Shown piece by piece: positions 1-52,735 of a stretch of DNA of 64,000 nucleotides. Position 1 is the stretch's first letter. Each line of letters begins with the position of its first letter. A program made the position numbers and the translations under genes. The notes beneath the pieces are model-generated. The model had not been told where the DNA came from and searched no databases. It saw only the letters and a program-made list of their open reading frames with translations. This DNA is from Octopus vulgaris (Eukaryota), in contig OX597821.1 of NCBI GenBank assembly GCA_951406725.2, positions 115,444,001-115,508,000 on the forward strand, given 5' to 3'.

Positions 1-1771
1 TGCAGCTGAAAAGTGCACTTATGCATGGAATTGAAAAACATTGAATACCTAGCAACGGTTAGGCAGAAATGAAATAAGTATGGTAAATTTATCATCATCA
101 TCATTTAATGTCTGCTTTCTATGTTGGCATGGGCTAGATGGTTTGACAGGAGCTGGCATGCCAGAGGATTGTGCCAATCTCTGTTGTCTGCTTTGGACTG
201 GTTTCTGTGGCTGAATGCCCTTCCTAATACCAACCATGAAACAGCACACTGGATACTTTTTTTGTGGTACTAGCACAGGCAGGGTCACCAAGTAACTTGC
301 AAGAAAAAGACTGGGAGGGGAAGTAGTTCTGAGGAAGGTGGCTTAGCACCAGTTGATGAGAGGGTAAGAGAATAATAGAGGAATAGTCTTGCTGTATTTT
401 TTTTTATCTTGTTTCAGTCATTTGACTGTAGTCATGCTGGGGCACTGCCTTGAAGGGTTCAGTTGGACAAATCAACCCCAGTACTTCTTTTTTCTTTAAC
501 CCTTTAGCATTCAAACCAGCCATATCCGGCCTAAATATTTTACCTCCTTTTTGTTCAAAACCATTCAGATCCAGCCTCTTACCCTGTCCTACAATATTAT
601 TCCCAAAGTAAAGAGTCACATCGCAGAAATCTCACAGCTATGAGATAATGCAGGATTAATTCAATGCAATGTGAATAAACAAGAATCACATTTAGGTGGA
701 ATAATTGTGAATACTAAAGGGTTAAACCTAGCACTAATTCTATCAGTCTCTTTTTTCTGAACATTTACAGCTAACCAATACCAATTGTCAAGCGGTGGGG
801 TGGGGGCACAAACACTCACCTGCACACACATACACACACACAATAGTTTGTCCATCTGTCTGATAATAGTTTAGATGCAAAAGAAAAACGAAAATAAGAG
901 GTGGTAGAAAACAGAAGATAGCTTCATTTTGTTTTGCTGTGGCTGAGTTGGTTTGTTCTGGTAGAGAGGTATTTGTTGCAGGCCACACATTATGTTCACT
1001 TGTACCGGAGTTGTTATGCTGATTTATAAGTATCCATTTTGGCTTCTGATACTGAAATTTGTAAAGATTCAAACACCTTTGAACTCCTGATGTTAGCTTC
1101 ACTCATGTAAAACCTCCAGGAAACGTCACACTATGAATTTAGATTGATTTTGCTGCCGCTCAAGGTTGCTTTTAATGCATCTATGAATTTTTTATGTGGT
1201 GTACCAACATGGTGCTCTCCATTTGTAACCTTAGAATAGAAGGTTGTCCTTGGTAGATATTCTGTTAACATGTCCAGCCCAACATACCTGGATTTGCTCA
1301 AAAGCTTAGCAAACAAACCAGGTATTTTGCCATGAGAGCCTCTGTATTGGCATTTTACCTTGCCACTTCATGCTTATAATCGTCCTTATGAAGATTCTGT
1401 GGGAGGATTGGAAATAATAAAAAAATTTTAGCATGGGTCTGGTTTGATGTCATACGGGAGATGTGGAAGGATAACAGCATTGTATATGCAGCAGTTTTCT
1501 AAAAGCTGCATTTTCCTTGCCAGTAAGTGATGGCACATCAACATCAATACAGGCGTTTTAGGAGTGCACTTCCAAGATATTTAAATTTGTCTACATTTTT
1601 CAGTATAATCTCACTTCCATTCCAGGATGTATACATTGTGCATGTTCTGGAATTGGTTGATGCAATATCTCTAGTTTTGCTTTATTGATAGAGAAGCCAG
1701 AGTTGTTGGAGACTCTTGAGATTTGTTTAACACATGGTTGCAGTGCTGGACTTATTTTGTGCAAGCAATCT

Positions 1772-2070
1772 ACATCATCATCATCGTTTAACGTTCGCTT
1801 TCCATGCTAGCATGGGTTTGACAGTTTGACTGTGGGTTAGCAAACCAGATGGCTGCACCAGGCTCCAGTCTTGATCTGACAGAGTTTCTACAACTGGATG
1901 CCCTTCCTAACGCCAACCACTCCGAGGGTGTAGTGGGTGCTTTTATGTGCCACCGGCACGGGGGCCAGACAGGCGGTACTGGCAACGACCTCGCTCGAAT
2001 TTTTTTATACATGCCAATGGCACAGGTGCCAGTAAGGGGATGCTGGTAATGATCACGCTTGTATGGTGCT
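1772..2070 (-). mobile_element. SINE-like repeat with (GAT)n tail, subfamily B
   Basis: catcatcatcgtttaacg...ccatgctagcatggg...ctggatgcccttcctaacgccaaccactcc; many near-identical copies in the window. Strand assigned by treating the (GAT)n run as the 3' tail. Confidence 0.8.
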
Positions 2071-2369
2071 CGTGTCCGTCATCATCTTCAAATAGCAGTT
2101 CAGACACTTTGATACTTTGGTTTTACTTGCAATCTGTCAAGATTAAGCAGTTTGCTGTCTTTCCTGTGCCTAATGTTAATTCCAGGTGGTGGTCTATAAA
2201 CCTCTAGCAACATGGCAGAAAACCTGATATTGAAAAGAGTAGGTGCTATGATGCAACCCTATATCATACCATAGGTGACAGAAAATGATATTGATATGTT
2301 TCCATTTCGAAATTGAACCAAATCCTATGACTGGCACCCTGCCAGTGCCACTGGACTGACTCCTGTGCA

Positions 2370-2722
2370 GGTGGCAAGTAAAGAAACACTGTTTCGACCC
2401 TGTGCTTGAGGAGACCGATTGAGTCAAGTACATTGACATCAAAAATCAATGGAAATTGTAGTTGTGATCCCTGTGCCGGTGGCACATAAAAAGCACCAAC
2501 CGATTGTAGCTGTTTTCCAGCCTCCTCTGGCCCCTGTGCTGGTGGCACGTAAAAAGCACCCACTACACTCATGGAGTGGTTGGCGTTAAGAAGGGCATCC
2601 AGCTGTAGAAACACTGCCAGATCAGACTGGAGCCTGGTGCAGCCTTCTGGCTTCCCAGACCCCGGTCGAACCATCCAACCCATGCTAGCATGGAAAATGG
2701 ACGTTAAACGATGATGATGATG
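2370..2722 (+). mobile_element. SINE-like repeat, subfamily A
   Basis: ggcgttaagaagggcatccagctgtagaaa...ttaaacgatgatgatgatg tail. Confidence 0.8.
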
Positions 2723-5700
2723 TTCCTAGCACTCACCAGTATGCCATCATGAAACTGGTGCATCTTATTCACAAACATGGACGGGCAACTATTAGCAAGG
2801 ATTTTCCACAAGCCACTACAACACACATTGTCAAAAGCCTTCATGAGATCAACAAAAGTTGGATACATGGCTTTATTCTGCCCTGTACACTTCTGGTTCT
2901 GTCTTACTGCAAAGATCATATCAATATAATGAAAATCATATTGGCTTTTTTGGTCAGAGTTTGTTGGTGGTAAGATAGTGAATGAGGGAATCATGGAGTA
3001 TTCTTGCCATGGTTTTGCTAGCTATTTATAAAAGGGAAATACCTTTATGATTACAACATGACTGCTTGTCACTTTTGTTCTTATACAGGTGAATAATTGT
3101 AGCATCCTTGAATTGTTGGGGAATGTTACCTATTGACCACATCAATGAAAATAGCTCAATTTTTCAATGAACATTTCATCACCATAAGCATATATTTCTA
3201 CAGGAATTGAATCTGTGCTTGGTTCTTTATGAAAAGACAGTAGCCTGATAGTTTCACTGGCTTCAAGAAGGGTGGGATTTTCATTAAGGTTGCATCGAAG
3301 AAAAACTACACTAGATTGTTTGTAGATTCTTCATTTACTTCCGACGGTCTGTTTAGGACATTTTGGAAGTTCAGCCCATCTTTCATGTATTGCTTCTTTG
3401 ACTGTGATACATGCATTTCAATCTGCTGTGGAGATGGGTGAAACACCCATGTGAGCTGGACCATAGATTGCACAAAGGCTTTCAAAACATTTTTGTGTAT
3501 TATTTGTCATCAGACTTCTAAGGCATTTTGAAATGATAAATATAGATTCCCTGCCTTCTGCTTGCTCTGAGGAGTATCTCCTGATTTTAAATTCCACCTC
3601 CACTGTAATAACTGTGAACCAGTGTTCAGTGCTACACTCAGTTTCAAACATAGATCTTGCTGTCTGCAGGTCACTGAGATTGTGCCTTCTCACAGTTATA
3701 TACTCCAGCATATGCTAGTATGTGGAATAAAGTTGTATCTAAGATATTTTGCATCTTGCTGGAATGCAAAAGTTTGTCTTGGCATTCTTTAAAGGAAGAG
3801 CCTGCCACATAGTGACCTGTGTCATTGAAGTCACCAAATGAAAATATATGATCTGAAATTGACATGGATGACAATGTAGATTCAAGATCATGGTCATGGT
3901 GGGAACATATTCCTCTTTGTGGAATTCTCAGTGGCGTTCTGTTATTAACTCCTTTGGGAACAAATTCCAATTAAGCAGCAAAAGAACTTTTCATAGCAAA
4001 AGCCAACACTGTTTAACTGGCTTCTGGATTTCTTTATCCTACCAGTAGAATGTATAGCTAACTTGTCTTGTTTTTTCAGTCCCTCTTTTTCAGCAAGTCA
4101 GTCTTCATTAAGTCCAGGTTCAAGAGCAATTAATGCCATTAATTTTTCTGATTGCACATGTGGCATGTCCATTGCTTGCTGTAAATCAGGCAATATGGGG
4201 TGAAGTGTGCTTTATTTAGGGCTCCTTCCTCATATGGGATGAGCAGTACCCTTAGTAGGTATCACTATAGAGCACCATAAAAGGGAGACTAGCATAGCTT
4301 GACCATGCAGAAACGCTTTTTGTTTGATTGTGTTCATGTCAAAATACATTTTTTTCTGTGGAAAATTATCATTTCAATTTTCTGGATGTGAACTTTCTTC
4401 TTATATAGTTCTGATCAAAATCTGATACTTATGTACCATGCCCAGGTCCTTTAATCATTCTGGTATCTCCACCCATTCACCAAGTTTGTCCCCTTTTTCT
4501 TTTTTCCTGACTGTTGATCTACTAGATTGCTATAACTCGATTTGTGTTGAAAATTATAGTCATGAAGGGGACTTTTTTTTGCTTTATTTTGATATAAAAA
4601 TCAATGGGGCAGAAATTGTTGTATTGAGAATGTTGGTTATTCCCTCACTGTTTTAACGTGTGTAGAGTGACATCCAAATTTTACCTAGCAGCTATTCTTG
4701 TACATGTAAATTTTGTTTGCCTTTGAGAAATATTTTGCCAATAAAAATTTTATTGTGCAATGAATATAATTTTGTAGTTAAAGTTGGCTGTTATGTTCTT
4801 TTTTTCTTCTGATTTTGAATACAATCAAACAATTTGTGGTAGTATTTACAAATTCATTTTAGGTTTTTTATTCTCTCTCTCTCTCTCTCTCTCTCCTACT
4901 AATGAGTTTGCTGTAGGTTACAGATGTTTTTAATGTCTTCAAATTATGCTTTTAAAGCTTAAGCAAGGAACAAGTTTTCAGATTTTGTTTGTTTTTTAAT
5001 CTAGGTCTACATGCAATTCTAAGAAAGGTACTAGGTTGTTGTGGGATGTACTAGAAACCACTGCTAAATCTCACTTAAATCACACACTTTTTCATTTGAA
5101 AATGTTTTCAAAATTTTTTTTCCACCAAAAAGGCTTCTCCCATTGTTTTTAAGAGTGTAGTGTAAAAAAAAAATGGCCAAAATTGGTCCAGAGAAGAGTG
5201 AAAAGGAGGGGTGTGTGAAAAAAAAATCATTTTTTTCACAAAAAAACTCTCCCCCTCTCCATAATTTCCAAGGCCATGATAGAAAAATCCCTGTCAAGAC
5301 AGAAAATCCAACTTATGTGGGTGTCCTGATTTGAAACACCATTTATAGCCATTTTTAATAGTCCATTAAAATTTTATTGAAATGGTGCCATGTCCCAAAA
5401 TCTCAGGTCCCTGTGGCTTGTACTTTTGGACTTAGCTAGTCTGAAAACATCACGAAATTGACTGTTACATGTAACAAAATAGGCTTTACATAAATATTTA
5501 AATATTTGTCAAAAACAAGTTTCCTTTCCAAGAACCTGAAAAAAAAAAAAGAAAAAGGGACAACTGCTGAACATTATTAATATGTGTAGTTTGAAGATAT
5601 GACAGCACAAATGAAGCTAATTTAGGCCAGTTAAGCAAGATTTTGACCAATCTGCTGACCATTCAAATTGTCATATTTCCTAAATATCCAAATTTCACAA

Positions 5701-8450: not shown

Positions 8451-8735
8451 ATATTATAAGTGGCAGGGTATTGCCAAAAAGCATGAGCAGGGTGTGGGGA
8501 ATGCAGTGACTGGTGAGAACCTGGGTATATAGAGGGAATGGGGGTAGCACAATACAGTGAGCAGGGCAGTGAAGACAGGATTGGGGAGTGGGACATAATC
8601 ATAGTGTATGAAAGAGTAAATGTGAAGAAGAGAAGAGAGACATTTTGGGAGAAGAGATGTAGTTTGGTTTGTTTGGATAGGGTGTGTGAAAGATTTGTTG
8701 TTACTTGTGGGTGAAACACACAGTGTGTCTAGAAC

Positions 8736-9510
8736 TCAGTTCTGCTGACGTGGGTGAGTCTTCTCTCGAATCTCATATCGCCAGACATCTTGGTCCATTG
8801 TCATTTCCTCCTTGAGCCCCAACATCCTGAGATTAGTCCTTGTCACTTCATCCCATGTCTTCCTGGGTTTCCCTCTACAACAGATGCTGTTCACTTTCTG
8901 TGACTGGCACTTCTTTATACAGCTGTCTTCGTTCATATGCATCACATGTCCAAACCAGCATAGTCTTCTCTCTCTTGCAGGCTGCATTTAATTCCTCTTA
9001 TGCCCAACTTCTTTCTCAACACATTTGTGCTTTGTTGTTCATGCACATCCAACAGAGCATACTGCTTTCATTTCTCTCCAGTCTATGCATGTCTTCTGCA
9101 TTCAGAGCCCATGTCACACTACCATGGAGCATAGCCGTTCGTACACAGGCATCATACAATCTACCTTTCCCTCTGAGAGAGAGTCCTTTTGTTGCCAACA
9201 GAAGTAATATCTCTCTGAACTTCCTCCACCCAGTTCTTATTCTAGAAACAATACTTTCAGAACACCCTCCACCATTGCTAATTTGTTTACCTATGTGACA
9301 GTACCTATCTACAACCTCAAGAGAGCCTCCTGGGCATTTGGGAGAACCTAAGTCCTATCTGCTCTTGTTCCTGCACATCTGCCACATACAAAGGCGACTT
9401 TATCTGTTAATTTACTTGTGATTCCACTGTACCTCTTATTGTGTCCATAGCTTACACTGGGTGCAGCAAATGGAATTACTGACGGAAAGAGAGTCTTATC
9501 TGCTTTCTTG
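8736..9510 (-). mobile_element. RTE-like LINE 3' fragment
   Basis: KGRLYDACVRTAMLHGSVTWAL...LCWFGHVMHM...RGKPRKTW. Same family at 37700-38290 (-) and 45680-45940 (+). Confidence 0.75.
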
Positions 9511-9589
9511 GTATGAAGAAGCATTGGTTGGCCTGCAGCTATAGTAGAAGACAGTTGCTGACAGTTCCATACAGTGGGACTGAACCTCA

Positions 9590-9975
9590 AACCTCCAAAG
9601 TGACAATTTAAGGCAAGCATGGATTCCATTGGAATTTTTACTTCTGGGATAACTGACAATGCAACTGCTTCTCCCATTTGAGATCTGTGGTCACACAAGT
9701 TCTGCAATGTTCTGCCCAGGGCCTCCAGAATTCTCTTATGAACCATCACATGTTCCTCTCAGACAATCACTTGGTATTTGTTGAGTTGTCTAGTCCCTGA
9801 ATTTTTGGCAATTTTCTAATCAGGTACATTACTTATGCTCAAATTCAGGAGGAGTTTCAAAGCAGAATGTGCTGTACAAACCTTAAGAAGGACAGTAGCA
9901 TTAAAACCTGAAGAAGCAACTGTAATAGATATGCCTTTACATTGACTAATTTAGGCAAGAAGTAGATTGATCTGA
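9590..9975 (-). mobile_element. Helitron Pif1-like helicase fragment
   Basis: Minus-strand AVASSGFNATVLL..CTAHSALKLLLNL and HKRILEALGRTLQNL resemble Helitron helicase motifs (ASSGIAATLL-GGRTAHS; ALEALDRTLQDL). Confidence 0.7.
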
Positions 9976-10000
9976 AATGTCTTTCCAGTTTCACTGTAAA

Positions 10001-10215
10001 CATCATCATCATCATCATCGTTTAACGTCTGTTTTCCGCGCTAGCACGGGTTGGACGGTTCGACTGGGGTCTGGGAAGCCAGGGGCTGCACCAGGCTCCA
10101 GTCTGATCTGGCAGTGTTTCTACAGCTGGATGCCCTTCCTAACGCCAACCACTCCGCGAGTGTAGTGGGTGCTTTTTACATGCCACCTGCACAGGTGTCA
10201 GGCGAGGCTGGCAAG
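10001..10215 (-). mobile_element. SINE-like repeat, subfamily A
   Basis: Same diagnostic sequence, with the (CAT)n run on the + strand. Confidence 0.8.
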
Positions 10216-11076
10216 GAAGAAAATTCCAGTTTCTTGTCAAATCCCGTCAGAAATTGCTAAATTGCTTCTGGTGTGTAGTAACTTTGAATTTTTCATCATT
10301 AGCATATGCTATTAATATGTCAACATTGTATGATGCCTCTTTCTGTTACTAGTTTATTAACTTCAGTTTAGTTACATTAAGAGAAACTGGGTTTTTGATG
10401 TTCTTATTGATTTATATCCTTGAACTTAATGATGAGGGCTGCATTATACATTTTATCTACAATGGGGTACATCTATTGGATTTGATACTTGAAATCTTTG
10501 GCAAGATCATATTTGAGCCTAAGGTGAAACACACCAGATGGTTCACAAAACTTTAAACAGCTTGGTGAAAAGAACCCTAAGACACTTGACTGCTTATAAG
10601 CATAAGCTTTTAGTTATGTTACATCTCAGTAGGCATAATTTTTCAGCAATCCAAGTAGTTTCTGGTGCAAACTTCTCCATCTACTCCTTGAAGATCATGA
10701 ACTGAATCTCGGTCTTGCACTTTATAGAGAGGAATTGCAGAAAGAAACATGTTGACTGGTGTGAACAACATACTCTCTCAAAATTATCTAGATACATGTT
10801 TTGGTAAAATGGATATTAGCATTCTCCTGTTTTTCTCTTTTTTTATTTTGCTATTGAAAATAGCCTTTTAATAGATACTAAAAAAATGTGCAACTAACTA
10901 TTAATCAGCTTTGCTTGATGAATAAAATGTTAATATAAATTTTTTTTTAAATGCTTCTGTTGGTGGCATATATATTTGCATTGCTTGGTCTGTCAGTTAC
11001 CCACAATTTGTTGAATATATCTTTATATAGTTTTTACTCTGTTATCTTGTCTTTTCTTTTTTTGACATTATTCCAG

Positions 11077-11131
11077 AGATGCGAACTTTGTCCTCAAAAA
11101 GAAGGTGCTCTCAAGAGAACTGATACTGGAG
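11077..11131 (+). CDS. MLLT10: AF10/MLLT10 coding exon (Zn-knuckle of PZP domain), first exon seen in window
   Basis: ttccag|AGA...GGA G|gtaag. Encodes RCELCPQKEGALKRTDTG, matching the AF10-family motif RCELCPHKDGALKRTD. 55 nt, phase 0 to 1. Confidence 0.93.
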
Positions 11132-12594
11132 GTAAGAAATTTTGTAGATATTTTCATTATTTAGTTTGTGGGATGAGCAGTGATTTTGGTGATGTGTGTG
11201 TTATGAAGATCAGATAGGGACAAATTTAGGAAGCTACAGAGAGTATTTCTTAGGATGATTTATAATTTGATGTTATTTGTGTCAGAAGCTTTGGAGTGTA
11301 GCTAACTCTTTGTAAACTAGTGTTATATTTTTCTTAGGAGAGTTTACAAAAAAAAAACAAAAGACGATGACAGGTGGTGTACAAAACAAACAGATGTATT
11401 AGTATAACGCTCAGGAATAGAAAAAGTCTTTTACGTTTCAAACCTACGCTCTTCTACAGAAAAGGACACAGAAAAAACAAGGAGAGAAACTTGGGTCTGA
11501 TGTGTGCTAGTGTATTGTCATGGGATTTGTCTGACATGTTTATAAATTATGTCCTATTTGTATTTTGGCACTGATGTATACAATGTCATTATGAATTGTT
11601 TTCTAGTGTTGTTATGCCATAGATTTATTTCAAGTGATTATTTATCTGTTCTCGTGAATCTGTTAGGGAGACCATAAATGTGAAGTTTTGTTTATTGATA
11701 TGTCTAGCATCCTAAGAAGTAGTTCTGCATTTTCCTTCAAGAATGTTTGAAGTAGGGATTTTTAAATTGTGAGTAGATTGTCTTCTTGGTTAGGGTAATG
11801 TGATATTTATTTTCCATTTGAAAGTCATACAATATTTATTTTGAGAGTATACAGAGATTTTGGTAGATTGGTAGAAAGAGGAACATGAGCATTTGTTACA
11901 GATGAATAGATTTGCAGAATGCTTCTTCTTGGATTTTGGTATTAGTAGACTTATTGTACCTAATTTGTGCACATAAATATATTATGTACTTTTTCTCTTT
12001 TTGTGGTACAAAAATATCAAAACAGTATTTGTCTCATTTTCAAGTGATCATTAAGCCATCAACATCAACTGTTATTTATTATGCATTAGTGAAGGGGATA
12101 ATCTGTTTTGAATTTGGGAAGGTGTTGGCAGATCAAAATTATTTTGTGTCTTTTGGATTGGTGTAGGATAGTGACTAACAGGTAATATTGCTAGTCCTTT
12201 CGTTGTCTTTTTGATTTCCTAATGTGCTTTAAAAGTACTGTTATTATTAAGGTACCAGTGGTGGGATGAGCTGTTGCACTGGTGTACACACACACACACA
12301 CACACCATTGATTTATGTTCACTTTATGTGATGGCATGAGTTGGATGGGTTGGATTGAACATATAGAGGCATTATGCATGTAAATGGGTTGAAGGACTTC
12401 ATCGTGTTTCATTTTTTTGCACGGGTGCCCTTTATTAATATTAACCACTTTACAGAGTGTACTGGGTGCTTTTGTTTTCATGATACCAATACTAGAGAAG
12501 TGTCACATTCTCAACAAGACTGAAGACACTTAACAACTCTTACATCTCTGCTTGTTTGACAGTATGTGTGTGTGTGTATATATATGTATCTGTA

Positions 12595-12951
12595 TATATA
12601 TAAGGCAGGATGTGTGTGTGTGTGTGTACATGATTGTAGTTTATGCACATCCACAAATTAGCACGCATGTCGCTCAAATTTTAGGAGGACATTTGTCATG
12701 ACCCTAGCTGTATTTTCGTCAAATTAATTTCCCCCGTGATACCCGTAAATAATTTTGAGCCATGACTTCTAAATTTTTACGGCGGAGAAACCCACCATTG
12801 TTTACAAAGCAAATATGAATTAAGTCCCCTCCTAGCTACAGTCTAAAGAGAGGGAGAGAGCAAGAGAGATAACAGATTTTTAAAATTTCGTCTTTTTACA
12901 GGCAAAAACAGACAGACAGGTGTTATGTATGTATGTGTGTATGTGTTGCTC

Positions 12952-12992
<41 letters not shown>

Positions 12993-13415
12993 ATATAAAC
13001 GATATTCTCCGTTTCTCCAAAATTAATTTCCAAATTAGCTGAATCCGTTGTTCTAATCATAGCGATATATAGCTGGTCGTGCGTGAACATGGGAGAGAGC
13101 AGAGGTTACCAGAGCAAAAGACCTACGTGTTGACTGTAGACACTCTTCTTCGCAAACGATCAGCTATTATTTTGTAAACAATGTTTCGAAACTGTTCATG
13201 TTTTCGAAAGGAGAGATATGACTTTCACATCTCTGCGGGAGAAGGCAGGCTTCTCTATTCCTGTTACAAAACTTATTTCCGGGTGCCAAATTTGCTTCAA
13301 CTGATGGTATTACTCGAGTAGGAGGTGGTGGTGGGACAGTGGCAGGGGCAAAGGTGTGCAAAAACATGTATGCAATAGGTGTATGTACATATATGTTTGT
13401 GTGTGTGTGTGATGC

Positions 13416-19241: not shown

Positions 19242-19416
19242 CTCTAAAACTAAACTGTTTCATTTCCCAATATTTTATTGTCCATTATTATTGGTGTGTT
19301 GTATACACGAGTGCATATTACAAATAAATATGGTATTCTCTTAAGTTTTCAATCAGTTCTTATGTTACTGGCTATATTACTACTATTATTGTATTAACCA
19401 AAGTTAGGTTAATACA

Positions 19417-20586
19417 TTGTTTGGCATCTTCTTCTCGCTCTTACTTTCACATGCCTTTCAGACATCAGATGATGGAGTGTTTCTGCACAGTAGAAGTGAC
19501 GGGAAACTGTTCAATCTCTCGCGCCTGCGTGCCAAGACCAAAATCAGAAACGTCCTGATCAAAGAGATGTTATTTGCTGATGATGCCGCTCTGGTAACAC
19601 ACACAGAAGAAGCCCTCCAAAGGCTCATTAACTGTTTTGAGCAAGCATGTAACGACTTTGGCTTAGCTATCAGCCTTAAGAAGACCAAAATCATGGGCCA
19701 GGCTACATCGGACATCCCAAACATACATATTGGAGACCACAGATTACAAGAGGTGGAGAAGTTTACCTATCTGGGCTCTACCATCACCTACAACCTATCC
19801 CTTGACACTGAGCTCAATATACGCATTGGCAAGGCAGCTGCTGCGATGGCCCAACTCTCCAAATGGGCTTGGGACAACAATAAGCTGACCAAGACCATGA
19901 AAATGAAGATCTACCAGGCATTTGCACTCAGCACTCTACTGTATGGAAGCGAGACCTGGACGCTATACACACGCCAAGAGCGTCGCCTAAACATCTTTCA
20001 CCTGCGCTGCCTCCGAAAAATCCTCCGCATCAAATGGCAGAATCATATCCCCAACAAAGATGTCCTCAGGCAAGCAGGAATACCAAGCATGTTTGCACTC
20101 CTCACACAAAGACGTATGAGATGGCTTGGGCATGTTAGCCGTATGAAAGATGGCAGAATCCCCAAGGACATACTCTACGGAGAGCTTGCTAGGGGTACTA
20201 GGTCTGTGGGTAGACCGATCTTACGTTACAAGGATGTTTGCAAAAGGGATATGAAGGCCTGCAACATCAATATTAGCGGTTGGGAGGCAGTTGCCGGCAA
20301 CCGTGGAGAATGGCGACGTACAGTAAAAGAAGGAATACAAAAGAGTGACAGAGAGGGAGAGGAGAAATGGAAAGAAAGGAAGAGACATAAACAAGAGACC
20401 ATGGCACTACAACCAGCCAGGAACAGTCTTCGCTACATTTGCAGTACCTGCCAGAAGGAGTGTTTGTCCAGGATAGGACTACACAGCCACAGCAGGAAAT
20501 GTATCAGGACATGAAATATAAAAGCCGGACTAGACTACTTCATGTGCAACTCCATTGTCTCCCGAGACAGAAAGGATGCCAATACA
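19417..20586 (+). mobile_element. Young 5'-truncated RTE-clade LINE (RT C-terminal half plus 3' UTR)
   Basis: Uninterrupted 365-codon ORF with LFADDAAL, FTYLGS, LLYGSETW, RWLGHV and a C-terminal CxxC..H motif. 14-bp TSD attgtattaaccaa at 19388-19401 and 20587-20600. Confidence 0.92.
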
Positions 20587-29455: not shown

Positions 29456-30075
29456 CTCCGTGATATGAAAGCTGATAGTAGTTATTTCCACCCAAGTAAT
29501 TTGTCTAATCATCCCAGCTCATTAACAAGTTCTGATCGGGAACGTCTTCTTCCTAATATTGCTCATGATAGAAGCAGACCTCCTAAATTATTGTCTACTC
29601 CACCTCAAGGGTCAAATCAGACACAGTCTGATTCCTCTCTCACAGCACCTGGAGAATTCGATGGCTTTAATGAAGCTGAAAGTAAGAATCATTCTGTTCC
29701 ACCTACTACCACATCATACGACAGCTGTAGAAGTGATTCTTCAGTAACATCACAACACAGTTCTGATCTAGCTTCCAAAGGACCTGGATCTACTTTGACT
29801 GCATCAGAAAATAAGCTTATTATGGATGCTCGATTTACAGTGTTACCCGAAGCCAGTCGTTTACTTACTTCACCATCAAATGGATCCTTTACAACTACCG
29901 TTACAACTGTTCAAAATAGTATGGTTTCTTCTCAACCTCAAACGACATTTTCCAGTAACTATGACAGTTATCTTAGTGGTAACCATGTAAGTGCTTCAAC
30001 AACCGGACTTAATGGTGTAACAACAGTTGTAAATAGCAGCCTTGAGCAGACTCAGGGGAAAAGACAGCGATCAAG
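29456..30075 (+). CDS. MLLT10: AF10/MLLT10 large Ser/Thr-rich coding exon
   Basis: ttttcag|CTC CGT GAT ATG...TCA AG|gtaaaa. Coincides with the 204-aa ORF 29465-30079. 620 nt, phase 0 to 2. Confidence 0.88.
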
Positions 30076-42095: not shown

Positions 42096-42187
42096 GAATC
42101 CAAATTATAATGTGTTTGGTGGTAGCCCTTATTTTCAAAGCTTAAGTGCATCTGGACCTGTGTCGATTTCAGGTTTTAGCCAAACAA
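42096..42187 (+). CDS. MLLT10: AF10/MLLT10 coding exon
   Basis: Long poly-T tract, tacag|G AAT...ACA A|gtaagt. Encodes NPNYNVFGGSPYFQSLSASGPVSISGFSQT. Phase 2 to 1. Confidence 0.8.
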
Positions 42188-45396: not shown

Positions 45397-45489
45397 ATTT
45401 GGAGAATAATGGTATATTGGCAACATCAGTTGTTACTGGATCCCATTTAACTTCAAATTTAGAAACATCTACATCACCAAACCTTACTC
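45397..45489 (+). CDS. MLLT10: AF10/MLLT10 coding exon
   Basis: attcag|AT TTG...ACT C|gtaagt. Encodes LENNGILATSVVTGSHLTSNLETSTSPNLT. 93 nt, phase 1-1. Confidence 0.78.
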
Positions 45490-46239
45490 GTAAGTAAACT
45501 TCCTTGTTGTGCATAAAGTATTTTATTATATAGATGTGTGCCTAGTAAATATGTGTACATGTACACATAGTTCCAGCTGTTATTGTAAGTCTTTGCCCTT
45601 GTTCTTGTATATTTTTCTGTGATTTGCTAGACTGATTATTTGCCATGCTCTAACTCAAACCAGTGCCATTTCATGAAGCATATCTATTCTATGTAGTGTA
45701 CAAGAGAGAAGACTATGCTGTTTTGGTCTTGTGGTGTGTATGGGTGAGAAAATTTGCATAAAAGAAGGGCTGATCACTCAAAGTAGCTGGAACTTGTGGA
45801 AGAGGGAAATCTAGAAAATCATGGGATGAAGTATTGAAGGCTGAACTCAAGGTGCTGAGCCTTATGGAGGAGATGACAAAGGACTGAGGTTACTGGCATC
45901 TTGCTGTGCTCAAGAAGACCCGTCTACCACAGCAGAATTGCCGGGCTCTGCTCCACCTCCATTCTATCAGCTCATCAAGCATTTTCCCCTCACATCTCAT
46001 CGCCTAACACTCATTACTTCCCTATGTATAGTACTACTGAGCAGTTCTGATCACCTGAGAGCAGAATAGGCACCATACTACATCCTTTCTTGTAAAAACT
46101 AAGCCAAATCAGACAATAGAGCTTGGCACTACCCACTGGTTTTCCTGCTCCTGTGACATCATCCAATCCATGCCAGCAGGGAAAACAGACATTAAATGGT
46201 GATGATGATGATGATATATATATTCACTGAATGTGGTAC

Positions 46240-46500
46240 CTAAGACTAGTTGCTAAATCACTATGTATCAAGGACCTCCTGAAGGAGAAAAGCCCCTCAG
46301 TCCTCTGCCAACACGCTCAATTAGAACATGTAGTTTTTGTTGACGACATGGATGCTAGGATCTTATCAACACATAAAACAGACACAACACTCAAACAGAT
46401 TGTGGAGACCACACATAATAGAAGATAGACCAACAGGAAACGTGAATGGAGTAATGACACCCCTCCACTTCACCACACTATGCAACCTGACAACTAAAAA
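46240..46500 (+). mobile_element. Possible Penelope-like GIY-YIG C-terminal remnant
   Basis: EKSPSVLCQHAQLEH...RILSTHKTDTTLKQIVET resembles the SVLxxH...H...RQIxEA tail of PLE endonucleases. Recognised by eye only. Confidence 0.4.
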
Positions 46501-46601
46501 CAGAACGAAGCAAAATAAAGGAATGACACACGCAAGACACACATACTAAAAATGGAACAAGAAAGAGAAGAAAAAATAAAACACCATTAAAATGATTTTA
46601 A

Positions 46602-47067
46602 TCAAATTCGATGACTGGCGTCCGTGCTAGCGGGGTGCAAAGAGCACCATACGAGTGTGATCATTGACAGAGCGGCTAACCGGCATCTGTGCCAGTGGCA
46701 CTTAAAAGGCACCATTCAAGCGTGATCGTTACCAGCATCACCTTACTGGCACTTGTGCTAGTAGAGTGCCAAGAGCACCATTCGAGCGTGATCATTACCA
46801 ATGTCGCCTTACTGGCACCTGTGCTGGTGGCATGTGTAAAAAATTCGAGTGAGGTCATTGCCAGTACCGCCTGACTGGCCCCCATGCCGGTGGCATGTAA
46901 AAGCACCCACTACACTCTCGGAGTGGTTGGAATTAGGAAGGGCATCCAGCTGTAGAAACTCTGCCAGATCAAGATTGAAGCCTGGTGCAGCCATTTGGTT
47001 CGCCAGCCCTCAGTCATTCATCCAACCCATACTAGCATGGAAACCGGACGTTAAACAATGATGACGA
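46602..47067 (+). mobile_element. SINE-like repeat, subfamily B
   Basis: Reverse-complement match to 33418-33912. Confidence 0.8.
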
Positions 47068-47826
47068 TACGCATACTAAATACAAACACACACACATATA
47101 CAGACATAAACACATTCATAGATAGTGATCCATACTACAGAAGGCAAAAATGGAATTAACAGGATAAGGAGAGGTGCTGATGAGTTCTTTTGTCACAGAA
47201 TTTGTGACAAAGGAACTTTGATGGACATAAACTAAAAATAATGCAAACAAAAACTAAAGTGAAGATCAAATAAATAATGTGTGTATGTTTAAGTGGCAAA
47301 AAACAAAAAAAGCCCCACCGTCTCCAAGTATAATAATACAGCATTAAATGTTTTTTCTAGAATATAACTAAATTTAACATAGGTTTAGTTAACAAATTTT
47401 TGAAAGCATTGCAATTTCTTTTTTTTTTTTATGTTTTGAATTTGTATTTTATATCTTGTGTAAAACACCATTAAAATGATTTTAACAACATAGATAATAG
47501 ACAATAAATGCTTTAATTGCTACCACTTGTTCATCTTTATACCAGTTGTTGTTAAAGCAAGACTATGACTGAAAAGTATTCCTACTTTTTTTTTTTTATT
47601 TCAAATGTATAGAACATAGCACAGTTATTTAATATCTTTTAAAGACATTTGTTTGTGACCTGGCTGCTAATTCTAGCTGGTCAAGCTTGTTAACTCCAGA
47701 AATGGGAAGATAAGTTTTAATGATAAAAAGTTGAACTGAAATACATTTCTAAAGTTGTATTATTGGAATTAGTTATAACTTTAAAAAATTTATTTATTTA
47801 CTTTTTCCACTTATTCTAAATAAATT

Positions 47827-48402
47827 TAGAGCAGTTGTATACTGTCAGCTTATCGTGACAGTCCTGTAAAGGGAATCACACCACTGCTATTTAGCCCTAG
47901 GAAGCATCGACGCTTCCTGTCGGCTTTGATACATTTCCTGTGTCCTTTTATGGGACTGTCACGATAAGTTGACAGTATACAACCACTCTATTGTTCCACC
48001 ACTGCTCATATCTCTCTGAGATATTTAGAAATTTAATATTTCTAATTTTGGGGATCAGTGAATAAACTTCACTGAAAATATATCTATTTGCGAAGGCTTT
48101 AGAAGCATCTTCAGCTAGCAGGCCATGCTACTCCAGACTGATGATGAGCAAGACTCAGAAATATGCATGTCTCTGGATGCAGGCCTAGCTGTTGGGGGTG
48201 CTCTTGTCTCCCCTTTGTAAATATAAGGACACAGGAAATGTGTCAAGGCCGACAGGAAGCGTCGATGCTTCCTAGGGCTAAATAGCAGTGAGTGTGATTC
48301 CCTTTACAGGACTGTCATGATAAGTTGACAGTATACAACCGCTCTATCATTCCACCACCGCTTATATCTCTCTCAGATATTTAGAAATTTAATATTTTTA
48401 AT
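47827..48402 (+). mobile_element. Hammerhead-containing partial-tandem element with inverted 5' segment (non-LTR retrozyme / PLE pLTR-like)
   Basis: Direct repeat 47953-48046 vs 48309-48402 (period 356 nt). 47827-47947 is the near-exact reverse complement of 48225-48346. The hammerhead lies inside the unit. Confidence 0.7.
48112..48191 (+). ncRNA. Type I hammerhead ribozyme (Penelope/retrozyme-like, palindromic stem III)
   Basis: Stem I TCCAGA/TCTGGA, extended by TGC/GCA, GGCC/GGCC and CAGCTA/TAGCTG. Core CTGATGA 48138-48144; stem II TGAG-caaga-CTCA; GAAA 48158-48161; near-palindrome ATATGCATGT; GTC cleavage triplet 48169-48171. Confidence 0.8.
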
Positions 48403-48430
48403 AAATGAAATTATTTTCTCTATTTAACAG

Positions 48431-48542
48431 CTCCACCATTAGCCAATGAAGGCACGTCTCCACTCAGTGTTGGCTGCCTTTTGGGACCACCAAAAATTTT
48501 CCCTTCGATTAACAGTGAAAAGCTACTAAATGAGAATGTAGG
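48431..48542 (+). CDS. MLLT10: AF10/MLLT10 coding exon
   Basis: taacag|CT CCA...GTA GG|gtgagt. Encodes PPLANEGTSPLSVGCLLGPPKIFPSINSEKLLNENVG. Phase 1 to 2. Confidence 0.8.
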
Positions 48543-49769
48543 GTGAGTGATTTATTTATCCATTTATTTTGCTAATTGACACTTTTCAATTATCTGTTGA
48601 GTTTCTTTCATTGTTTGCTTGATATAGAAACAAATTATTGATTCCTCAGAACTGAAATTTTATACTAAAAAAAACTTTGGCAAATAACTAGCTGTTTGCT
48701 GTAAGTGAAATATTTTAAGTGTTTCCAGAAGGATCTAAACTGTTACTTGATGCTGTTTCTACATACAGTCCTCTCGAATGATCTAATCAGTTTTCACAAA
48801 CCTTTCATCAGTCTGTCATTGTCAGTCAGGCACAGAAAATAGTCACTCTCTTTTGCATGGTTTTTCTATGACAAGGTGTTCAAGATATAATTATTTTGAG
48901 CTTAATCTGCTGTGTACATTTGTCTACATGCTGGTTGTCACATAATCCACTGACAAGTTTATTGTCTGCAATTGAGGAAGTGTTAAGAATGATGATCTAA
49001 CATTTGGGCCAATGCTTGTAACTGTTGTGATATTAGCAGTACCTATAGAAGCAAACAAGGATCTGGGCTATCTCCATGTAGAGCCAGAAACAGGTAACCA
49101 TATATCCCCCCCATCCTCCCAGGACATGGTTGGGCTGTTGCTGACCAAAGACTCCTCTCTTTGAGTATGTCTCTTTGGGAAGGGTGTGATGGGTAGCGAG
49201 AGCTACAGGCTGACTCTCCTCCATCAACCAGCAACTCTCCAACAGTGGACGAAGAAGCCAAAGAAGAACCTCTCATATTGTTATGGCTTGATGTTCCTAA
49301 CAGTTATGCTGGCAGTTAAGGGAAATGCCAGATGGAACTGGCTGTGAAGGCACAGTTCGACCATAACTTAGAATCTGTGGCAGTCTGTTGCAGTTTCATC
49401 TTTTGATCCTGTCTGTCTTCTCTTTTATGTACTGCAGAAGCTCTTGAAACCTCAGTGCACGGGTCACCCTGCAAGTTGTAATCCACCTTAATCAAACCCA
49501 CACCATCTGCTCTCTTCCTTTCCATGACTTTGGAATTTCGGTTTCTACTGTTTGTCTTACTTTCCTGCTCTTCTTCCTTCCATGCTTAAACCAAGATTTG
49601 TGAAGTCCAATAGGCAAAAGGATAAGGATAATGGGAGCAAATTTAGGTGATCTACAGGTTGGTGGGTGGCAGGTGTGTGATGTTGCCTTCCCAAGACCCA
49701 GTGACTACTCAGGATTCTTACTACCTGGTTGAGTAGCTGCACCCAGTGGGTCAGCATCCTTCTGCAACC

Positions 49770-52643: not shown

Positions 52644-52735
52644 AAATGGGCTTGTTCAGTCTATGGAACAATTATTGGAACACCAATGGGACTTGGGGTC
52701 TCAGTTTTTGATGGAACAGGGTCAGCATTTCGATA
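52644..52735 (+). CDS. MLLT10: AF10/MLLT10 octapeptide-motif exon
   Basis: tttcag|A AAT...GAT A|gtaag. Encodes NGLVQSMEQLLEHQWDLGSQFLMEQGQHFD; the AF10-family octapeptide is EQLLERQW. Confidence 0.93.

Follow-up and report, generated by a model that had tools for sequence, protein, structure and literature searches.

A retrozyme-like hammerhead repeat in an AF10 intron of Octopus vulgaris with the insertion geometry of Penelope-like elements

Introduction

Which enzyme moves animal retrozymes, and whether the more-than-unit copies of Penelope-like elements (PLEs) come from circles, are two open questions that have so far been argued from co-occurrence and sequence similarity. A hammerhead-bearing insertion in the AF10/MLLT10 gene of Octopus vulgaris raises both of them at a single locus: what kind of element is it, and how was it copied? 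The insertion lies in a stretch of 64,000 nt (contig OX597821.1, 115,444,001 to 115,508,000, forward strand), called the window below, to which all coordinates refer.

Non-LTR retrozymes are GC-poor tandem repeats of 150-450 bp with type I hammerheads (Cervera & de la Pena 2020, PMC7229834); this and the other published sources are drawn on here in part. Retrozyme circles are expressed in coral, mussel (350-390 nt) and axolotl (330/350 bp units), and PLEs were proposed as retrozyme mobilisers (PMC7229834). Circular RNA had been proposed for hammerhead repeats (PMC4209133, PMC7229834). The same retrozyme-PLE link is noted in a curation guide (PMC8969392), and Li, Clavereau and Pollet tied retrozymes to PLE pseudo-LTRs (pLTRs) via co-occurrence and trees in 35 genomes (10.64898/2026.07.22.740005). 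In their scheme, monomers count as family members, while the term 'active' needs two hammerhead units; in Xenopus, about 43% of the retrozyme monomer copies lie in introns (10.64898/2026.07.22.740005). The retrozyme class and its PLE link are thus already published.

A PLE typically inserts as a partial tandem, in many cases accompanied by an inverted 5'-truncated copy and by a tail of 30-40 bp at one end (PMC8557442). In the anole PLE, the one studied in vitro, both strands of AT-rich sites are cut and extended by the enzyme, and reverse transcription starts at two internal sites bounding the tail (PMC11167929). Uncleaved RNA was the dominant template in that system, and hammerhead mutants still inserted (PMC11167929).

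We propose that the AF10 locus is, quite probably, a non-autonomous hammerhead-bearing retroelement of ~350 nt that inserted long ago and would have been copied by the reverse transcriptase (RT)/GIY-YIG enzyme of an autonomous PLE.

Results

Anatomy of the insertion

As listed in Table 1, the insertion consists of an inverted arm, a partial copy of a terminal segment and one full unit ending in the same segment. The two direct copies are spaced by 356 nt and identical at 93 of 104 positions (89%), and 7 of the 11 differences are at CpG-type sites; counted from 47953, there are 8 differences in 94. The preliminary description had reported a direct repeat of about 94 nt with a period of 356, which was right within 10 nt, the fuller extent being 104 nt. 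The inverted leading segment was found again as well, 4 nt longer than claimed. It matches the reverse complement of 48221-48346 with 94.4% identity over 126 columns and one 1-nt gap (E 5e-51 within the window), and it reaches 47951, overlapping the first direct copy by 9 nt. The palindrome aggaagc-gtcgat-gcttcct is present at 48254-48273. Partial tandem, inverted 5'-truncated copy and a one-sided tail of 56 nt together make up the geometry of PLE insertions, and the insertion as a whole amounts to 1.3 units with one hammerhead.

The candidate target-site duplication AATAAAT brackets the whole composite insertion. It is weak and no more than suggestive, since 2.9% of 9077 AT-rich control flanks gave a match of at least 7 (p about 0.03). 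No second copy of the element was found elsewhere in the 64-kb window, and the element is absent from the output of Tandem Repeats Finder. The AF10 intron contains an old, decayed member of a non-coding mobile repeat that is abundant.

Table 1. Features of the insertion, its hammerhead and the host gene (window coordinates).
Feature	Coordinates	Strand	Basis or remark
Inverted arm, 5'-truncated copy of 48221-48346, without the 56-nt tail	47827-47951	-	alignment
Microhomology, 9 nt, at head-to-head junction	47943-47951		fits inverted arm and forward copy
First, partial copy of terminal segment, pseudo-LTR equivalent	47943-48046	+	repeat finder
Second copy of terminal segment, 3' end of insertion	48299-48402	+	repeat finder
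One full non-coding unit, 356 nt, GC 0.42, strongly self-pairing	48047-48402	+	folding
Tail, 56 nt, right end only	48347-48402	+	limits are putative RT start sites, by analogy with PMC11167929
Palindrome/hairpin, 7-bp arms, 6-nt spacer	48254-48273	+	mirrored at 47899-47918
Candidate target-site duplication AATAAAT, left copy	47819-47825		suggestive only
Candidate target-site duplication, right copy	48400-48406		overlaps element end by 3 nt
Canonical type I hammerhead	48132-48177	+	structural scan
Hammerhead helix I	48132-37/48172-77		6 bp
Hammerhead core CUGAUGA	48138-44
Hammerhead helix II	48145-48/48154-57		4 bp
Hammerhead core GAAA	48158-61
Hammerhead helix III insert	48162-69
Predicted hammerhead cleavage site	after C48171
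Imperfect long rod extending helix I	48086-48222	+	fold prediction only
Host intron of AF10/MLLT10	45489-48430	+	element in sense orientation at its 3' end
112-nt coding exon of AF10, preceding the octapeptide-motif exon	48431-48542	+	residues about 567-606 of Octopus AF10

A canonical hammerhead in a non-coding unit

The structural hammerhead scan gave one match across both strands of the 64 kb, at CTGATGA 48138. Under the strict rule (helix I at least 6, helix II at least 4), matches occurred in 0 of 200 block-wise dinucleotide shuffles; under the loose rule, in 26 of 200. Taken alone, the core letters do not exceed chance (8 matches, a number reached by 22 of 100 shuffles), and the Rfam hammerhead models gave no match, either at the gathering score or at E<=10. 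The hammerhead had been placed within the unit, and the structural match there has the CUGANGA, GAAA and UH core, a helix I of 6 bp and a helix II of 4 bp. Canonical metazoan hammerheads have 6- and 4-pair helices with a short palindromic helix III, and the minimal hammerheads of metazoan PLEs have a helix II of 7-8 bp and a helix I of 4-5 bp (PMC4209133).

The predicted pair probability is 0.96 for helix I, 0.43 for helix II and 0.00 for helix III, the same in four contexts up to the whole insertion, and the active fold of helices I and II is predicted to cost just 2.1 kcal/mol. According to the fold model, the long rod would keep the cleaved ends together. Helix III of the AF10 copy reads TATGCATG, one base away from a palindrome. 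T48162, where the family has C, leaves a U-G pair and a broken palindrome, and thereby weakens helix III in this copy.

The absence of coding capacity was borne out: the longest stop-free frames in the element are 45 aa on the + strand and 62 aa on the - strand, and a circular reading of the unit gives the same values. No PLE open reading frame (telomerase-like RT and GIY-YIG) occurs in the element, nor any ORF of at least 100 aa between 44045 and 51305. With 356 nt, a GC content of 0.42, no coding sequence and a type I hammerhead, the unit falls within the retrozyme ranges (150-450 bp, GC <50%). It is also predicted to be a highly self-paired monomer. As a circle, the unit 48047-48402 has a predicted minimum free energy of -115.8 (z -5.9; 0 of 200 shuffles as low) and the register 47953-48308 one of -124.1 (z -6.7), compared with z -7.0 for the linear fold; the 25 of 45 control windows used ranged from z -2.7 to +2.1. 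The predicted folding is equally strong as a line or a circle, so it does not favour a circle.

Two family variants, 48090 (G>A) and 48218 (T>C), concern one predicted pair of the long stem, within 48086-48097 / 48212-48222. Each of them gives a standard pair; they are unphased and hence are not demonstrated covariation.

A high-copy family in the sequencing runs

Parts of the stretch occur in 20 listed runs from 11 studies with five organism labels, none of them on record as RNA, of which the DNA runs X1, X4 and X16 (three organism labels) and the run X8, labelled 'RNA?', were examined. Flanking single-copy contigs have a depth of 44-61. Meanwhile, the summed contig depth reached 147,600 (X1), 104,572 (X4) and 55,644 (X16) at 48145, and 380,000-602,000 in these runs at 48222. 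The ratio to single-copy depth is about 950-3200 at 48145 and 8700-13,000 at 48222 in all three DNA runs; because summed contig depth is not a copy count, these ratios are rough and read only as thousands. Very roughly, the family thus numbers thousands of copies. In agreement with the preliminary description, a high-copy family rather than a single-copy sequence was found in 3/3 DNA runs, with the hammerhead kept in homologues.

The AF10 insertion itself was recovered too. Contigs of X1 and X4 cross its left junction, and a contig of X1 its right junction, in each case with 0 differences; X1 may be close to the source of the window and is not independent support for the junctions. Among the listed contigs, none covers the flanks in X16 and none covers the right flank in X4, and no empty site was seen.

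At 48162, C accounts for 91% (X1) and 75% (X4) of the family depth, which restores GAAAC and the palindrome CATGCATG. In a family form with 4 letters missing at 48162, the helix III palindrome is CATG. Among the loose ends listed (24 of 830), the one at 48151 reads GAAACTAGTC, the CTAG form, in 4/4 runs (21, 31, 4 and 29 contigs). Helix III is therefore palindromic at the family level in three variants: CTAG, CATG and CATGCATG. That a single site carries three distinct palindromes suggests selection for dimeric cleavage, as judged from the sequences.

At 48052, the link from the tail to the unit start (48046/48047) is spanned by 35, 51 and 12 contigs in the three DNA runs. All links round the unit have cover, which is thin at 48084-48102: about 40-55 times single-copy in X1 and X4 and about 4-5 times in X16. 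No contig with two hammerheads was seen among contigs that are too short to reveal multimers. In X4, record 18 starts at 48044, and its 518 nt upstream do not align to the terminal segment; other family copies may have a different 5' part. Depth drops about sevenfold from 48016 to 48052 in X1 and X4; X16 lacks this drop, and similar dips result from divergence.

The depth of 48205-48346 exceeds that of the hammerhead about 4-9 times in each of the DNA runs X1, X4 and X16. The family may thus consist mostly of short 3' ends that lack the ribozyme, or 48205-48346 may be common to other families.

In run X8, represented by contigs only, the flanks and the exon have no depth. The profile of X8 resembles those of the DNA runs (Spearman 0.90 and 0.96 over 17 bins) at a median of 1.4% of X1; this run could be shallow DNA and speaks neither for nor against RNA. 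The hammerhead-element pattern had 0 matches in metagenome contigs and 0 in viral contigs.

These profiles bear on the first rival explanation, namely that the locus is a remnant of an autonomous PLE, with two or three 5'-truncated pLTR ends in partial tandem, an accidental 356-nt period and no small unit at all. We regard this as rather unlikely. A PLE remnant would have the identical geometry, 5' truncation predicts just such a depth, higher at 48222 than at the hammerhead by ~4-9 times and lowest upstream, and record 18 of X4 does differ upstream of 48044; moreover, Penelope elements are abundant in coleoids (PMC8967140). However, the hammerhead is canonical rather than minimal (PMC4209133), each of the three DNA runs covers the 48046/48047 link with hundreds of copy-equivalents (at 48052), an ORF remnant is absent from the element, and unit size and self-pairing match mussel retrozymes of 350-390 nt (PMC7229834). 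The reading as a small non-autonomous unit is thus preferred.

One template and recurring inversions

At the position equivalent to 48320 (47964, 48320 and the complement of 47853), each of the three local copies has A, whereas the family base there is T in 99.6% (X1), 98.9% (X4) and 85% (X16) of the depth. As this private A is common to the three copies, they derive from one template and not from separate insertions; the sequences point to one template copied over more than a unit.

Head-to-head inversions also occur in other family copies. Among the 15 joints listed of 52, 11 imply inversions, all with breakpoints other than those of the AF10 locus, while 2 link the unit into the terminal segment and 2 are double mapping. 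Six of these 15 are inversions with a side of at least 30. The joints 47861>48206 and 47900>48136 were both seen in X1 and X4, and 48020/48111 and 48223/48292 belong to the same group, as do two that carry caveats: 47889>47947 might instead reflect a deletion allele of the AF10 locus, and 48095/48221 lies at complementary stem arms. Record 29 of X8 is one more inverted contig. Five joints of inversion type whose sides measure 18-25 lie at the palindrome or close to it and were left out of this count. The PLE-type insertion geometry that had been suggested is therefore present at the AF10 locus, with inversions at further breakpoints elsewhere.

Two sets of joints were set aside. The joints 47871/47952 and 47914/48258 map doubly onto the locus's own repeats, and two 'goes back' joints, considered as circle evidence, show only a link into the terminal segment.

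The same data were weighed against a second rival, in which a SINE-like monomer inserted once and its duplicates arose later at the DNA level via template switching or palindrome fold-back. The private bases shared by the three copies fit this scenario as well, and so do the junction microhomology, the hairpin-rich unit and the clustering of several short-sided joints at the palindrome. On the other hand, the candidate target-site duplication brackets the whole composite, other copies show inversions with different breakpoints, and both outer ends are unit 3' ends, as in PLE insertions. Later duplication is therefore considered improbable, and insertion of the composite in one event by a PLE enzyme is retained as the preferred reading.

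The host intron

The exon at 29456 is 98% identical to AF-10 of Octopus bimaculoides, and tblastn of the AF-10 protein placed 15 stretches along the window, including 48424-48543. Among the neighbours of the exon 48431-48542, one AF10 exon ends at 45488, between the exon 42096-42187 and the element's intron, and another starts at 52645. The element end at 48402 lies 28 nt from the exon, as had been described, and this exon is real AF10 coding sequence. The "120-bp duplex" described at the acceptor had to be corrected: the inverted arms form a predicted duplex of 125 bp (-233 kcal/mol) that ends at 48346, 84 nt before the acceptor. Branch-point-like TTAAT motifs have their A at 48392 and 48401 (consensus matches only).

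Both TTAAT motifs at usable acceptor distance lie in the last 14 nt of the element (48389-48402), and one overlaps the candidate target-site duplication.

No effect on the AF10 acceptor was seen: the exon is present in 17/17 AF10 proteins (15 of 21 cluster members and two other clusters), whose source genomes may or may not carry the insertion. The AF10 copy is probably a passenger in its intron, and the locus looks like a decayed one.

Co-option for AF10 regulation, either by self-cleavage of the pre-mRNA or by a 125-bp duplex that is A-to-I edited or shifts acceptor use, is accordingly very improbable. The hammerhead does lie on the transcribed strand with its low predicted cost of activation (just 2.1 kcal/mol for helices I and II), the arms could form the -233 kcal/mol duplex, one or both branch-point-like motifs are within the element's end, and the left junction is common to two organism labels. 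Against it stand CpG decay like that of a neutral copy, T at 48162 in place of the family C with its U-G pair and broken palindrome, the lack of a second hammerhead as dimer partner in the 64 kb, the exon in 17/17 proteins, and cleavage of Xenopus genomic dimers in 1/9 (10.64898/2026.07.22.740005). A MITE was rejected, as only one of the inverted arms could count as terminal and the arms repeat a stretch from inside the unit.

Two other repeats lie in AF10 introns. A 25-nt exact direct repeat at 46577-46601 and 47461-47485, 884 nt apart and in the same intron as the element, looks like a long target-site duplication, and it brackets a repeat that we take to be a common octopus-type one, with 63-66 nt internal units at 46614-46898. 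The 368-aa open frame 19408-20514 (+), with a Pfam RVT_1 match (E 2.4e-8), is the 3' part of a non-LTR retrotransposon, presumably resembling RTE-type elements and not PLEs.

Discussion

How, then, would a PLE enzyme have produced this insertion? We infer the enzyme, the priming sites, the form of the template and any cleavage from the footprint. A PLE enzyme would cut both strands of the AT-rich intron site. One end would prime at unit position 48402 and copy 451-460 nt (~1.3 units), so that the forward product would pass through the hammerhead and cross the cleavage site once, while the other end would prime at 48346 and copy 125 nt. Both priming sites, 48402 and 48346, would be internal and 56 nt apart, and the two products would be joined head to head at the 9-nt microhomology.

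The template would have comprised more than one unit. We lean towards an uncleaved tandem transcript; a re-ligated circle is a credible but less favoured template, and the two predict identical DNA. A 1.3-unit copy does not require a circle, because uncleaved RNA is the main template and hammerhead mutants insert in the anole system (PMC11167929). In the source copies, the hammerhead probably cleaves multimeric transcripts, which would be aided by dimer pairing of the palindromic helix III.

It was initially put forward that a circular RNA is copied by rolling. The bolder version of this idea, in which a PLE RT starts at two fixed internal sites and goes more than once round a circular retrozyme RNA, seems doubtful to us. 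If it were true, octopus insertions would connect retrozyme circles with PLE enzymes through a direct footprint for the first time, reading round a circle would explain the origin of PLE partial tandems and tails, and sense-strand intronic copies would add cleavable or editable duplexes to octopus pre-mRNAs.

As for classification, the proposal of a cephalopod retrozyme family stood in part. The Octopus host, the high copy number and the retrozyme-like size and folding agree with it; the two-unit test failed at the locus, where two or more hammerhead units were sought and 1.3 units with one hammerhead were found. The AF10 copy can only be a monomer-type member, of a candidate retrozyme family. 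As the locus lacks both the second hammerhead unit and a PLE ORF, we class the element as a non-autonomous derivative of PLEs that resembles retrozymes, in effect a Penelope derivative reduced to its pLTR.

The octopus element is a further member of a known animal element class. In the literature searched, no cephalopod retrozyme family is described, although the supplements of PMC7229834 and 10.64898/2026.07.22.740005 may list cephalopods, and the octopus family may already be entered in Repbase/Dfam. No description of inverted heads on retrozymes was found in that literature either, most subscription papers being outside its scope, and a term search of PMC5680766 gave no mention of molluscs or inversions. 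The present family would extend the retrozyme class to cephalopods, for which the literature searched held only a count of 235 Rfam hammerhead matches in the giant squid (PMC6962438). A high-copy family that combines a canonical hammerhead with PLE-type inverted heads and tails makes both questions raised at the outset testable, and the AF10 insertion is useful as a test case for retrozyme mobility.

Compared with EN+ PLEs (Penelope/Poseidon, Neptune), the octopus element shares the partial tandem, the inverted 5'-truncated copy, the one-sided tail, the AT-rich target and a hammerhead upstream of the 3' ends (PMC8557442, PMC11167929). Unlike them, it has no RT or GIY-YIG ORF, and its hammerhead is canonical, not minimal. 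The tail measures 56 nt versus 30-40 bp in the literature (PMC8557442), and the ends lie 175 and 231 nt past the cleavage site versus about 85-92 nt in the anole PLE (PMC11167929). The octopus Naiad PLEs (Naiad_Obim and Naiad_Ovul) come from the same genus and show tandem and inverted insertions (PMC8557442 supplement), but they are 4-kb coding elements with (TA)n targets, lack a canonical hammerhead and are described as long inactive in cephalopods (PMC8557442). Judged from these descriptions rather than from sequence, Naiad is unlikely to be the partner PLE.

Metazoan non-LTR retrozymes are alike in being non-coding and 150-450 bp long with a GC content under 50% and a canonical type I hammerhead, and likewise in their short palindromic helix III, strong predicted self-pairing, thousands of copies and lack of LTR features (PMC7229834). 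The octopus locus differs in having 1.3 units with a single hammerhead and in being known from DNA alone; its inverted head and tail are not among the retrozyme features described in the part of PMC7229834 used here. As far as it was covered, the main text of Li et al. mentions neither molluscs nor octopus and does not analyse inverted ends; it agrees with our reading in treating retrozymes as non-autonomous PLE derivatives and in reporting scattered monomers (10.64898/2026.07.22.740005). The two studies differ in their evidence, which is co-occurrence and pLTR similarity in the preprint and an insertion footprint in the octopus.
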